This document shows positions 12,093 to 48,600 of a DNA stretch of 64,000 nucleotides, piece after piece. Under the pieces are notes generated by a model. It worked only from the letters and a program-made list of their open reading frames with translations. It was not told the origin of the DNA and did not search any database. Position 1 is the stretch's first letter. Every line of letters starts with the position of its first letter. The position numbers were made by a program, and so were the translations under genes. Origin of the DNA: a virus (lineage: Duplodnaviria > Caudoviricetes); the IMG/VR virus record IMGVR_UViG_3300033121_001789, positions 45,853 through 109,852 of that record; one strand, given 5' to 3'.

Positions 12093-12144
12093 TTGTTTAT
12101 ATATTAAAATTGATTATTTCAATAAAATATTTAATATATAAGAA

Positions 12145-22991: not shown

Positions 22992-23672
22992 TTAACACAA
23001 TAATTCTATTTTACCTCTTGAAAATTCCTTGAAAGAGCATTGCTTATTAGTGGAATGATCAATAACTAAATCTTCTTTAATACGATAAGATCTTTTTTTA
23101 TCCGATCGAGAACCCATACCAATTTGGTGTAATCGATTTCTATATTCTTTTTCGTCCCATTTTTCTTGTTCAATAGACTTTAACTTTTCCTCTAACCTTT
23201 TCCAAGCCAATTCTTCATTTTTCAATTGATCTCGAGTATCCTGGCATTTTATTTGAATTCCAGATGGTCTATGTGTCAAGATAACACAACTTGATACCTT
23301 ATTAACATTTTGTCCACCCTTGCCACTACTTCTAGTATATTGTCTATCTACATCATTTCGATTTAAATGAAAGTGTAATTGATTATCCGGATCAATTAAA
23401 GCAACTGTAATAATAGAAGTTTGTGTCCTTCCTCTTTTTTCTGTCGATGGTACTCTTATCCATCTATGTGGACCAATTTCATTTTTAAATAGATTTGAAA
23501 CATTTTTCCCACTCAGTCAAATTGAGGCAAATCCATTCCTATCTTCAATAATATCATATTTTAATCCATGATTTCTTGCAGTTTTAACATAAATATTTCT
23601 AAGATCCTCAACTAACATCTTAGAATCTAATCCGCCCTCAGCGGCTCTAATTTCTATAATGATTTTTTCCAT
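22992..23672 (-). CDS. class I peptide chain release factor, RF1-type (PxT), lacking domain 1, with in-frame TGA at codon 52
   Basis: Single frame from ATG 23672: MEKIIIEIRAAEGGLDS...FASI*LSGK...EIGPHRWIRVPSTEKRGRTQTS...SGKGGQNVNK...CQDTRDQLKN...RSDKKRSY; TGA at 23517-23519. Confidence 0.9.
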
Positions 23673-23708
23673 AATTATTAATTTTTATTTTTGAGCAATA
23701 AATTGTTA

Positions 23709-23759
23709 TTGTGATTGAATAATCACAAACCGCTAATAATTATGTATTCTAAATTTCAT
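23709..23759 (-). promoter_or_regulatory. putative leader peptide (MKFRIHNY-TAG, 23733-23759) followed by an 8-bp hairpin (23709-23728)
   Basis: ATG AAA TTT AGA ATA CAT AAT TAT TAG, then TTGTGATT-ATTC-AATCACAA, upstream of the release factor ATG. Confidence 0.45.
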
Positions 23760-23777
23760 TTCATTATATATTATAAT

Positions 23778-24182
23778 TCAAAATAAAAGTTCTTTTAAAA
23801 TGAAGTTTCTCTTAACCTCACCAGGTAATATGTCTAATATTCCTCTCTTACTGACTATTAACTTATTATCTCTACTATAAGAACTATAAATAGTTTTCAA
23901 TCTATCTCTTTTTGTACTATTACAATCTTCCATCCATATTGTTGATAGTGAATGATTGACCAATAACGCCCAAAATATGTAGTTATTCTCATAATTCATA
24001 ACCCAGAAAGAATTGGACTTTGGATGTTCCTTAATGACTTCTTTTTTATTTCTATTAGAATCATATTTTATCTCTGTAATATCCAATACCATGGTTGGGT
24101 AATGATCAATCGGATGATTACCTGGTTTATGAAAAGATGTTTTCTTAAACCCCAAAGTTTTTAATTTCTTATGAATATTCAT
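23778..24182 (-). CDS. hypothetical protein with C-terminal RxxIL motif
   Basis: ends KRNFILKELLF; TATATTTG upstream. Confidence 0.65.
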   Translation of the reverse strand: MNIHKKLKTLGFKKTSFHKPGNHPIDHYPTMVLDITEIKYDSNRNKKEVIKEHPKSNSFWVMNYENNYIFWALLVNHSLSTIWMEDCNSTKRDRLKTIYSSYSRDNKLIVSKRGILDILPGEVKRNFILKELLF

Positions 24183-24231
24183 ATTGCAAATATAATTAAA
24201 AAAAGTGATTTTCTAATTAAATATATATTGT

Positions 24232-24477
24232 ATGTATAAAGATACAACTCCAACATTCAATTCCGGAAATCGAAAGATTGTCAATTATAAAGACTTTATT
24301 CAAAATATTGATAAAGAAAAAGAAGAATTGAAAACTGTTAAAAAGTCATTCTCTAAAAATGAATTAGAGATTGGTTTAAAACAGCATAAATATAAATATA
24401 ATAAAGTCACTCACAAATTAGATGACTTGACACCAGACGAAGTAGATGATAAATTAGATAACTTAGAAGAGAATTAA
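24232..24477 (+). CDS. hypothetical protein
   Basis: 81-aa ORF after AAATATATA. Confidence 0.6.
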   Translation: MYKDTTPTFNSGNRKIVNYKDFIQNIDKEKEELKTVKKSFSKNELEIGLKQHKYKYNKVTHKLDDLTPDEVDDKLDNLEEN

Positions 24478-29721: not shown

Positions 29722-30089
29722 TGGTGGAGGCGGAGGGTTCGAATCCTCGTCTTCCTCAGTTAGATACAACCAATCATTTACAAGCTTAGTTAATTTTTCT
29801 AAACTAACAAAATAATAAATTTTTTCGACTCAAAAAATATTTATAAAAAACTATCACGATTTTTATCTGTTGGATTCAGAGGTAAATTTCTTGAAATATC
29901 AATTAAGCCATTTCAAACTCATTCACCATGAGTAAGTTGTTTTGTAGGGCAGCTACTAAATCTTCACTGGTTCCCACTTCGTTTGTTTTGCCGATTACGA
30001 CATTCGCCATTTAATTTTTAATCGGTTATATGACAATCCGATACTTGCTCAATTACACCTAGGACCGCGAATCAATACATTACGCCCCC
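29722..30089 (-). ncRNA. ssrA: tmRNA, 368 nt; tag (A)GKTNEVGTSEDLVAALQNNLLMVNEFEMA*
   Basis: 5' GGGGGCG pairs with 3' CGCCUCC-ACCA with G3:U. T-arm GAGG-AUUCGAAC-CCUC. pk1-like pseudoknot (UCGG/CCGA; UUGUCAU/AUGGCGA). Resume context UAAUC-GGC 11 nt later. Tag ORF 29992-29903. Confidence 0.92.
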
Positions 30090-45623: not shown

Positions 45624-48600
45624 GGTCTAACTGTTGACAATACAATATCGTTATATCTTTTAGAAGTTAGATTAGTATAAGATTCCAATTCTCGTATATC
45701 TAATATTCCACGAATTTCATAGTTTTTCTTATCCCTATAAATAGCACCATATCCATTTTGTGATGTTACCTCAATAACTAAATATGGATCTATATTAGAA
45801 TCAATAGTAAAATTGAAGGAATATAAATTATCAATATACCTACGCTCAACTATTTTTTGAATTGGAACCAAATCAATTTCCTTCCACTCCGTTATATTTA
45901 TCCAATTATTGCTATCAACAAAAGGAGTAATTACTGAATATGTAATCGAATCAAGTCCGGAATATATGTAAAAATTACTATCATACTTTACCACATCAGA
46001 AACATTATATAATGTTCCATAATTCCAATTGGAAATATCTTCATACTTTCGAGGATTATTTGTTTGATTATTATCTATAACTGATTCATAAACCTTATCA
46101 TAATAAATTACTCTATCACCTATCATGTAGTTTTTAAATGGATACCACTCTCGATATATCTCATATGTTCTAATATTTACATCATACATATCTGGCAATG
46201 ATTGTGTTGATGATATATAAAAATCTAAAACGCAGTTATAAACTGTCGATCCATTATTAACAGGCATAAGATATAATTCATTCAGCTTAAATGAAACAGG
46301 TGTAAATTCCTCTGTCGTTTTTATGATCTTCACATCACGAACAATATGACCAATGGATGTTGAGTGTACAAAATCCGCTCTTCCTGTTATATCCAATATC
46401 TTATGTGTTATTGGTATAATATTTTTCTGCAACCAATACTTCAAACCCTGCAATTTTATCTGAACCTCTTCTAAAGAATATGTCAATAGATTATTACCCT
46501 CTCTATCCGTAATTCTATATGTTAGATTAAATAAATTGGTGTCCTCATAATTATCATTTGGGAATACATGTTTAATAAAATCATTATCTGTCCAACCCTC
46601 GACAGTATTATCAAATATATCAGGTATCTCCACTTTAAATAGTTTTCGATAGTTCGAAGATATATAATTTATATTTCTATAATACTCATTTAATTCTAGG
46701 TCATTATACCCAAAATAATTAATAGCGTTAATGATTGATTTATAACTACCAACATAAGGATAAATTAAATTTTTCATCATCATCATTTCCTTTCGTTTAC
46801 GATTCAGATATGTCCAATCAATCCCCTCTTCTTTAATATCATACTCTTTGAAGATATAAACATCATCAGATGATATCAACTTACCGACATTTCCTAATTC
46901 CGTTTCAAATCTTATATCTTCTATCTCAGTTTGTCCATATAAATTAAATCTTCCCAATTCCCTATCCCAAATCTTAAATCGAACAGATAAATATGTTGTG
47001 CTTCCAGATTTTGGATAATCAGATATAATTGTAGTTTCTGAATCAAATCTATCAACAGATTTAAAAAAGTCCACTTTTATTGATTTAAAAAACACCTCTC
47101 TTATTCTAACTAAATATCCATTATTATTAGAGATATACTGTTTTCTATTGTTGGACTCATCTTTTATAAAAATAGCCAAGTGTTGTCCAGGTCTAAATCC
47201 TCTATAATTACCCAAATCATCTGTTATGAAATTGCTACTTGACATTAAACCTAATTTAATAAGTCCATATCTATCATTACCATCTAAAACAGTCTCAAAT
47301 GAAATTTCATTTGTAGAATCTAATAAAGTATTAATTGAGAAGTCAATGTCTTCTTTTAAATAAAGTTGAAGAATACTTCTTATTCCTCCCTCCATTTGTG
47401 AATTAAACCCAATAAATGTTTCTATTGGTTCTGGTACGGATGATGTGTCCTCATCATCATCAAAATAATTTAATCTGTGTCCAATAACCGGGAAAATTGT
47501 TTGTTGATATTCTGGATCATTTACTTTTTCCAAATTTCGATTGGCGTTTCTATTTAGATAAACAGTTGTTAATGGCTTTGGGCCGGTATAAGCCAAAACA
47601 CCATCAGTTGGTAATAAATCTCCTGAAAAATCATATAAGAAAAATTCAGGAACGTTATCTGAAAACCATTTCCAATAAAGAGATGCTTCTGGATATCCTA
47701 CATAATTATATCTCGGTCTTCTAATGAAGTCTTTGGTATGCAACCAAAGATAGTTCCTGTGCGTATAATCAGGTGACAAACTACCATAATTATTCTCCTC
47801 CATATATGAGTATGTAGGTGTTATATTATAAAAAGAGAAATCTACAATCGGAACAACTTCAATAATAGTATTTGTATTTGGTTGTATAGCCCATATGCTA
47901 TTTCTATCAGGGTTATAAATCATTTGTGTTGTTGGATTACCAACAGGTAGTACAATTATTTCAGTAATATTGCCAGTATATCCATCAAATACCCATATTC
48001 CTGGTAAAGTTGGATCTTGATTTGATAGATAAGTATCACCATCATACATATTTATTTGAAGATATCCCCATATACTTGAAAATGAGTGATTAAATAAATA
48101 GGTATCTGTTGAATCATCCAATAGACTAAATTGTGGAGAATCCGTTGATATATTAATACCAGACTGCAAATTATTAAAAATAATATTATTAAATGAAGAT
48201 GATGATATTAATATTGTTGAAACGATACCATATTGAATTTTATTTAGATTTGTTCCCCAAACATAAATTGATTGTGTTATATTATCATATACCATTATAT
48301 CTGATGTCAATCCGGTTATTACATATATGACACTAATTGAAAGACTCATACCATCAATTCTCAATACAGAAGATCCATCTCGACAACTAACATACATATC
48401 ACCATCATACTCATTAAAAATTAAATTATAGGAACCAGAATAAGGTATTGTCGAAATGGTAGATATTAATACTCCAAGATTAAATATCTTAACATTTTGA
48501 TCTGTTGATACATAAATATATCCAGTATTTTTATCATATGCTAAGCTATAGGCGTCTTCGGCTATTGAAATTGAGTTAACAACAATATTAGAAAATGGGT

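Follow-up and report, generated by a model that had tools for sequence, protein, structure and literature searches.

Introduction

How does a phage set the synthesis of its own release factor when the gene for that factor is interrupted by a stop codon and preceded by a leader that holds others? This question is raised by a locus on the minus strand of an IMG/VR virus record of 109,852 bp, which has a G+C content of 28% and an estimated completeness of about 20%. The window that we analysed is a stretch of 64,000 nucleotides of this record (positions 45,853 to 109,852), and coordinates without further specification refer to the window. Huge phages encode release factors (PMC7162821), and the literature describes the RF1 and RF2 genes of phages as code-change genes that are 'encoded in standard code' (10.1101/2021.08.26.457843; PMC10746230). 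A full-text literature search returned no description of a stop-codon leader before a release-factor gene.

A first-pass annotation of this DNA had proposed that a UAG-ended peptide of eight residues and the hairpin behind it sense termination by RF1, while a UGA within the gene senses RF2. Here, we describe the locus, its predicted RNA structure and its counterparts in related phages. The comparison of these loci supports the leader as a real conserved element that is specific to this release-factor gene, with the stop codons as its conserved feature. The key structure is probably a long-range helix over the start codon, which the first-pass annotation had missed; the hairpin is probably an accessory nested inside it. 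We propose, at a probability of about one half, that ribosome occupancy at the leader stop or stops unmasks the start of the release-factor gene, which would make the leader a termination-sensing riboregulator.

The release-factor gene and its internal stop codons

The gene comprises 226 codons (22992-23672, minus strand), starts at the ATG at 23672-23670 and encodes a class-I release factor of the RF1 type. Both the PCRF and the RF-1 domains are matched (PF03462, 2.3e-17; PF00472, 4e-30), and the catalytic GGQ motif is present as SGKGGQNVN. The codon-recognition tripeptide of the window gene is PST, and most relatives have PPT; PxT is the form found in RF1, whereas RF2 has SPF. The protein is nearer to RF1 than to RF2 in NCBIfam (185 versus 128 bits, the RF1 score being set against an equivalog cut-off of 400) and likewise in a comparison with the PDB (RF1 130 bits, RF2 90 and PrfH 88). 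The alignment to RF1 begins at about residue 105-113 (~107), and hence domain 1 is missing. By its sequence, the product is a domain-1-less relative of RF1 and not a canonical prfA product.

Codon 52 of the gene is an in-frame UGA (23519-23517, minus strand), past which the coding sequence continues in the same frame. The annotation of this UGA as an internal gate is borne out across the family: among ~160 related loci, 36 non-redundant ones have TGA at codon 52 and five have TAG, and other loci have a +1 frame change at this position, at CTT TAG C. Codons 37, 39, 44 and 48 are additional sites at which an in-frame TGA is found repeatedly, in many cases in a gene that also has the one at codon 52. 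Since an internal stop is kept across the family, the TGA at codon 52 is not damage. Many relatives also carry a cassette resembling that of prfB (GGAGGGG-N-CTT TGA C or CTT TAG C) ~15 codons before codon 52. In the window gene, neither the leader nor codon 52 has the CUU or the frame change of a prfB-type +1 site.

According to a 2025 survey (PMC12421855), recoding autoregulation is known for prfB and not for prfA, and the prfB motif never contains TAG; the phage cassettes with CTT TAG C contrast with bacterial prfB in this respect. Within the short 'PPT' family of phage release factors (L006-L166), recoding gates are found in nearly all members, often as two TGAs per gene. Two in-frame TGAs are also present in L284 (LR756501, 735 kb; codons 39 and 52) and in L285 (LR745206, 635 kb; codons 46 and 54). 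In one gene (L092), TGA takes the place of the conserved Trp of HRW, which hints that UGA is read as Trp.

Genetic code and general features of the phage

An in-frame TGA could simply mean that TGA is a sense codon throughout the phage (code 4 or 25). This was excluded: open reading frames predicted with code 11 span 90-92% of the record, and the remaining candidates with in-frame TGA, in the record and in 100 kb of the related genome LR756502, are antisense shadows of standard reading frames. The release-factor gene is the sole clear case of an in-frame TGA both in the 110-kb record and in the 100 kb of LR756502. A UGA-suppressor (UCA) tRNA is absent from the 110-kb record, from the ~50 tRNAs of LR756502 and from 165 release-factor loci, and a UAG-suppressor tRNA is absent from the complete relative LR756502 and from this record. 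Among 117 non-overlapping reading frames of the 110-kb record, 80 end in TAA, 19 in TGA and 18 in TAG, so that the description of TAG as the minority stop is right, but only by a single gene.

By release-factor similarity, the closest GenBank phages are LR756501-04 and LR745206, uncultured genomes of 595-735 kb, which we take to be the genomes above 634 kb of Al-Shayeb et al. The five genomes of >634 kb reported by Al-Shayeb et al. in 2020 all belong to the Mahaphage clade, with predicted hosts in the Bacteroidetes (PMC7162821). A Shine-Dalgarno (SD)-like sequence precedes only one of 110 genes of the phage analysed here, and this near-absence is consistent with Bacteroidetes hosts.

Layout of the leader

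The release-factor gene follows a gene of 134 amino acids without an assigned family (23778-24182, minus strand), a homologue of which also precedes the release-factor gene in L002, L088 and L010. Its terminal TGA (23780-23778) is in frame with 14 sense codons, which are followed by the leader UAG. Immediately downstream lies a promoter-like gene-start motif, TAATATATAA (23764-23773, minus strand), found in a promoter scan. It overlaps a sigma70-like -10 element, TATAAT (23775-23770), with a -35 element, TTTAAA, from 23799; ten of 12 positions match. At least 15 large genes of the phage have the wider motif tTAATATATAA in front of them, at one of two spacings (13-15 or 26-30 nt from the start of the motif to the ATG); it is probably a phage promoter for leaderless mRNAs or mRNAs with a very short leader. 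At the short spacing, the transcript would begin at or beside the AUG. Further sites of this motif occur in the window, for example at 12132(+), 27302(+), 28470(+), 31953(-), 51410(-) and 62945(-).

Two small reading frames follow the motif on the minus strand. The first, a minigene ATG AAA TGA (23756-23764), begins 9 nt from the start of the motif, and transcription may start downstream of its ATG; its UGA overlaps the AUG of the second in an AUGA-type arrangement. The second is the leader reading frame proper, MKFRIHNY (ATG AAA TTT AGA ATA CAT AAT TAT TAG; 23733-23759, with the TAG at 23735-23733). Its ATG stands 14 nt from the start of the motif, as in eight real genes, and thus sits where genuine genes start. 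A hairpin with perfect 8-bp arms begins 4 nt past the TAG. At the DNA level, the arms are TTGTGATT (23728-23721) and AATCACAA (23716-23709), with ATTC as the loop; as RNA, the hairpin reads UUGUGAUU-AUUC-AAUCACAA (23709-23728, minus strand). Its fold energy is -6.7 kcal/mol (z -2.8), and one of 200 shuffled sequences folds equally well. The 116-nt leader as a whole folds with -15.4 kcal/mol (z -1.9).

The promoter-like motif, the minigene, the UAG-ended reading frame and the stem are therefore all present as first annotated. That the leader reading frame shares the frame of the release-factor gene is also correct in the window, where the stop of the upstream gene lies in that frame too, but the relatives have theirs in other frames, and the identity of frame is incidental. 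There is no intrinsic terminator at 23400-24300 in a terminator scan; two pairs of the stem are G-C, and UAACAAUUUAUUG comes directly after it. No covariance model of Rfam 15 matches the leader on its minus strand down to E=1, and the leader peptides of the window and of the relatives contain no known ribosome-arrest motif.

A predicted helix over the start codon and its counterparts in related loci

In the minimum-free-energy fold of the whole leader, the hairpin is nested within a long-range helix, P1. The 5' strand of P1, CAUAAUUAUUA (23734-23744, minus strand), spans the three sense codons at the end of the leader reading frame and the UA of its UAG, and the 3' strand, UAAUAAUUAUG (23670-23680, minus strand), consists of the start codon of the release-factor gene and the preceding 8 nt. 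The two strands are perfectly complementary over 11 nt. The probability that the AUG is paired is about 1.0 in the window and in L010, L002 and L088, and such a degree of start pairing is found in just 1.8% of the genes of the phage.

The 5' strand of P1 forms the core of a block, T[GA]A-[CA]TACATAA[TC]TATTAG[CT]G (block A), which recurs 66-75 nt upstream of the release-factor start in four other lineages. The release factors of these lineages are 66% (L010), 73% (L002/L003), 66% (L088) and 55% (LR756502, a 642-kb phage) identical to that of the window. Sixteen of the 22 columns of the block are invariant; the coding sequence of the release factor is 46% invariant and has no invariant run longer than 9. 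Although non-coding, the block matches the best coding segments in conservation. The pairing with the start is kept as the identical 11 bp in L010, and ten of the 11 helix positions are complementary in LR756502. L002 and L088 differ at the release-factor start (AGUCAUGG), and the partner there is CUAUGACU, the end of the little reading frame including its UGA.

The same layout is built from unrelated sequences in two further types of locus. An IscU-like gene in L012 ends GTT TGA ACT GAT TAC TAG CA, and a 13-nt complement of the release-factor start follows directly (E -11.0); in L004/L011, TGA GCT TTC TTG TAG overlaps the strand that pairs with positions -12 to -2 of the release-factor start. 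Hairpins of other sequence stand behind the UAG in L010 (-11.3), L088 (-7.9), L002 (-6.6), L004 (-9.8) and LR756502 (16 bp, -14.1, z -8.2), and the hairpin is retained despite sequence change, including swaps from U-A to G-C and from U-A to A-U. L012 has no hairpin, and its helix strands are just 20 nt apart. The leader peptides differ by block type (LHNY/IHNY, AFL/TFL and TDY), and a conserved leader peptide was rejected because none is shared between the types. What recurs of the annotated leader is thus the block, the stops and the hairpins, but not the peptide or the frame of the release factor. When IMG/VR was scanned for the block as a sequence pattern, the only matches beyond the known release-factor contigs were chance ones, some of them in coding DNA. 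Such a leader is missing from about 48 of the 58 AT-rich members of the family and is therefore not required for the release factor as such.

The strength of the pairing was judged against other genes and against shuffled sequences. In the window, the leader:start duplex has an energy of -10.2 kcal/mol, which places it in the top 2% of 111 phage genes (mean -4.8, sd 2.1), and a comparison with shuffles gives p 0.008; taken together, the leader:start duplexes of -9.4 to -10.2 kcal/mol rank in the top 2-3% of the 111 genes of the window phage. Dinucleotide shuffles are beaten in four independent groups: p is about 0.01 for the block A pairing, 0.02-0.05 for the alternative register CUAUGACU:AGUCAUGG of L002/L088, 0.004 for L011 and below 0.002 for L012 (over 13 nt). 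In L013, L089 and L090, the tandem stops are present and the duplex is not significant against shuffles. An RNAalifold consensus returns the same helix as its only structure, but with an energy of only -0.17 kcal/mol. A formal covariation test of P1 on five sequences, which are the whole of the block-A set and mutually related, finds one compensatory pair, no better than shuffles. The total cost of opening the release-factor start is 6.6 kcal/mol, which is ordinary for genes of the phage (mean 5.0, sd 2.8), and total opening energy was dropped as a measure of sequestration because of this unexceptional value. Start-site sequestration as a trait of the whole TGA class of the family was likewise rejected, as only about 10% of the class shows it.

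Both strands of P1 contain ATAATTAT, an A/U-rich perfect palindrome, and a sequence of this kind makes chance pairing easy. The palindrome also bears on a quite different explanation, in which the element acts as DNA and the two copies of ATAATTAT, the inverted repeat of the hairpin, or both, are operator sites for a phage regulator; the position of the region directly downstream of the promoter-like motif would suit such a role. Yet the flanks of the two copies are complementary and not repeated (C...UA versus UA...G), and the start codon always lies within one arm. Moreover, in L002/L088, L011 and L012 the paired sequences are not palindromic and the arms are separated by 20-60 nt, and LR756502 lacks the promoter motif at the block. 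Operator sites are, on these grounds, a highly improbable account of the leader.

UGA followed by UAG

In all leader-bearing relatives, the reading frame that enters the block ends at UGA, with C or A as the next base, and the next in-frame stop is a UAG 3-4 codons on. The UGA-ended reading frame is a mini-ORF of 3-4 codons in L002, L088 and L010, and a full gene in LR756502, L012 and L013; the UAG-ended octapeptide that the first-pass annotation had emphasized is thus not the conserved feature. The window differs from its relatives at this point by one base. In an ungapped alignment, TTT AGA ATA CAT of the window corresponds to TTC TGA ATA CAT of LR756502 and to ATT TGA CTA CAT of L010, and the AGA at 23750-23748 (minus strand) stands at the position of the UGA of the relatives, so that the leader reading frame of the window reads straight to the UAG. 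A 9-nt deletion as the origin of the window leader was rejected on the basis of the same alignment. The idea of a logic of two stops thus has a counterpart in the leaders of the relatives, which show UGA and then UAG; the leader of the window itself has UAG only.

The order of the stops was examined for all nine stop pairs, counting an ATG-initiated reading frame that ends at the first stop and is followed 2-5 codons further on by the next in-frame stop, in the region from -130 to -20. TGA followed by TAG is found upstream of ten of the 58 AT-rich family loci, compared with two of 243 control genes; none of the other eight pairs is enriched in these loci relative to the controls, and in the control genes, which come from the same phages, TGA then TAG is the rarest TGA pair. 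Start pairing is stronger in loci with the TGA-TAG design than in those without it (median -8.55 versus -5.4 kcal/mol; Mann-Whitney p 0.0014).

These results bear on the view that the leader owes its conservation to common descent and has no present function. The block would then be what is left of the 3' end of an upstream gene in an ancestor, with the hairpin and the complementarity as by-products of an A/U-rich, palindromic sequence. The leader peptide (..KFR-IHNY) does resemble the end of the upstream gene of LR756502 plus its extension, and the weak covariation, the ordinary opening energy and the lack of the leader in most family members point in the same direction. Against this, a relic would hardly match the best coding segments in conservation, recur as the same layout from unrelated sequences in L012 and L011, or show an association of tandem stops with start pairing and hairpins that are kept with differing sequences. 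We consider a functionless relic distinctly unlikely, and we return to the reading in which the ribosome at the leader stop controls access to the start codon.

Proposed gating of the start codon by a terminating ribosome

The leader is most likely a translation-coupled, riboswitch-like gate of the release-factor mRNA. In a leader free of ribosomes, P1 would hide the release-factor start; in a phage with next to no SD sequences, initiation would need an open A/U-rich start region. A ribosome waiting at the UAG would hold the 5' strand of P1 and the 5' arm of the hairpin in its mRNA channel: with the UAG in the A site, a footprint of ~15 nt upstream and 12-13 nt downstream would take in all of the P1 5' strand and most of the hairpin 5' arm, which agrees with the annotated expectation that a ribosome at the UAG would cover the hairpin. 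The release-factor start, ~40 nt past the leading edge of this ribosome, would then be free for a second ribosome, and the slower the termination at the leader stop, the more release factor would be made. The signal sensed may be termination at UAG by RF1. If the phage factor itself reads UAG, as its RF1-type motif suggests, the outcome would be negative feedback; the loop may thus be a feedback or a readout of host factors. The hairpin would probably keep the strands of the helix close to one another for fast re-closing, or sit at the entry channel of the ribosome.

In the relatives, a leaky UGA 3-4 codons before the UAG would make arrival and dwell at the UAG depend also on termination or readthrough at UGA. 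In the window, the leader gate would consist of the UAG only, and UGA would still be tested at codon 52 of the gene. These considerations lead to a more specific but tentative version, which we regard as possible and no better than that: the leader would be a meter of two stops in series, UGA (RF2 only) and UAG (RF1 only), ahead of a start hidden by the helix, and the two termination activities of the host would set the synthesis of the phage factor; the UGA at codon 52 would add one more check, and the window would be an AGA variant.

Constrained folds were computed with a ribosome placed at the leader stop. In each of the seven loci, opening the release-factor start costs 4-6 kcal/mol less with the modelled ribosome in place. 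For L012, this requires a ribosome parked at the UAG; in the block-A loci, ribosomes parked at the UGA and at the UAG open the start equally, and either stop may be the one that is sensed.

The same folds are compatible with plain translational coupling to any upstream reading frame, in which termination is not sensed and the choice of stops is either incidental or a safeguard against a leaky UGA, as in the model any ribosome at the end of the upstream frame opens the start. It also fits this account that the stop of a full-length upstream gene precedes the 5' helix strand in LR756502, L012 and L013. Incidental stops, however, would not explain why UGA then UAG is the one pair enriched (10/58 versus 2/243) although it is the rarest TGA pair in the controls, or why the gene under control should encode a termination factor and carry stop gates of its own. 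We therefore think that coupling by itself is rather unlikely to be the whole explanation.

The hairpin invites one more alternative. In viruses, structures a few nucleotides downstream of stop codons stimulate readthrough, and a hairpin 0-5 nt past the UAG might likewise promote readthrough or pausing, with an extended leader peptide as the product; in the window, this peptide would run to the in-frame UAA (23708-23706) directly after the 3' arm of the hairpin. The base of the hairpin would indeed lie at the ribosome entry channel with the UAG in the A site. Neither the frame nor the next stop past the UAG is conserved in L010 or L002, however, the peptides differ between the block types and L012 has no hairpin at all, so that a readthrough product seems to us a very remote prospect.

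Comparison with known systems

A leader reading frame that controls access to a start site is a known general kind of element; what is unusual here is a tandem UGA-UAG before the gene of a termination factor. We know of no RF1-type release factor in bacteria that is regulated by its own substrate, prfB being the textbook case. The +1 frameshift of prfB (RF2) is alike in that the efficiency of termination at a stop on its own mRNA governs how much of a class-I release factor is made, and the prfB cassette is found inside the gene in other members of the phage family. There are, nevertheless, clear differences. The first is the place of the sensing element, which in the phage is the 5' leader and not the coding sequence, with no slippery CUU, no SD and no change of frame. 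The second is the type of factor and of output: the phage gene is of the RF1 type, the stops are UGA and then UAG, and the output would be the unmasking of a start codon.

In leader-peptide translational attenuation (ermC/ermB and secM-secA), as proposed for the phage element, a ribosome parked in a short leader reading frame melts a helix that hides a downstream start. The ribosomes of these systems are parked at a drug- or force-dependent arrest site, whereas in the phage the parking site would be a stop codon without an arrest peptide, and the start that would be masked is A/U-rich and lacks an SD. In tnaC, as proposed here, the dwell of a ribosome at the stop of a tiny leader reading frame is the signal. 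The target of tnaC, with RF2 stalled at UGA, is however Rho-dependent transcription termination, and the system requires tryptophan together with a specific nascent peptide; the phage leader has neither a terminator nor a conserved peptide. Plant eRF1-1 is autoregulated through stop-codon readthrough and NMD (PMC5397192). It likewise reads the level of a release factor through readthrough of a stop on its own mRNA, but it is a eukaryotic system that uses a 3' UTR and mRNA decay, unlike the proposed masking of a start codon by a 5' leader in the phage.

If the proposed gate is real, huge phages have a second and mechanistically different way of coupling release-factor synthesis to termination efficiency. 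It would help to explain how termination by the host is managed while the phage's own release-factor gene carries stop gates. It would also provide a natural part of ~90 nt that reports dwell or readthrough at stop codons, which would be useful for genetic-code expansion.

Codon specificity of the factor and neighbouring translation genes

The specificity of the phage factor itself may deviate from that of RF1. In the clade of the window, the equivalent of Gln181 of RF1 is Ile, Leu or Val (HRWIRVP and HCFVRVP; 23672-23640 and homologues), with Ile in the window, and the equivalent of His193 is Gln; Gln181 is kept in most family members outside this clade. The reading of stop codons, or of their third base, by the factors of the window clade may accordingly be altered.

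tRNA genes flank the release-factor gene in 72 loci. A tRNA(CUA), which reads UAG, lies 1-2.5 kb from it in eleven loci (L025, L027, L029, L036, L038, L049-L052, L083 and L094); such a tRNA is unexpected beside an RF1-type factor and puts the specificity of the factor in question. A tRNA with the four-base anticodon CCUA is present in L042. The window contains a tmRNA-like gene (29722-30089, minus strand), which gives a full-length match to Rfam RF00023 with 41.7 bits (E 3.6e-14; gathering score 47) and was not called by ARAGORN. Outside the window, at G000 C1:4640-4735 (complement), ARAGORN identifies a tRNA-like gene with the four-base anticodon GUUU, which adjoins genes for tRNA-Glu, tRNA-Tyr and tRNA-Met.
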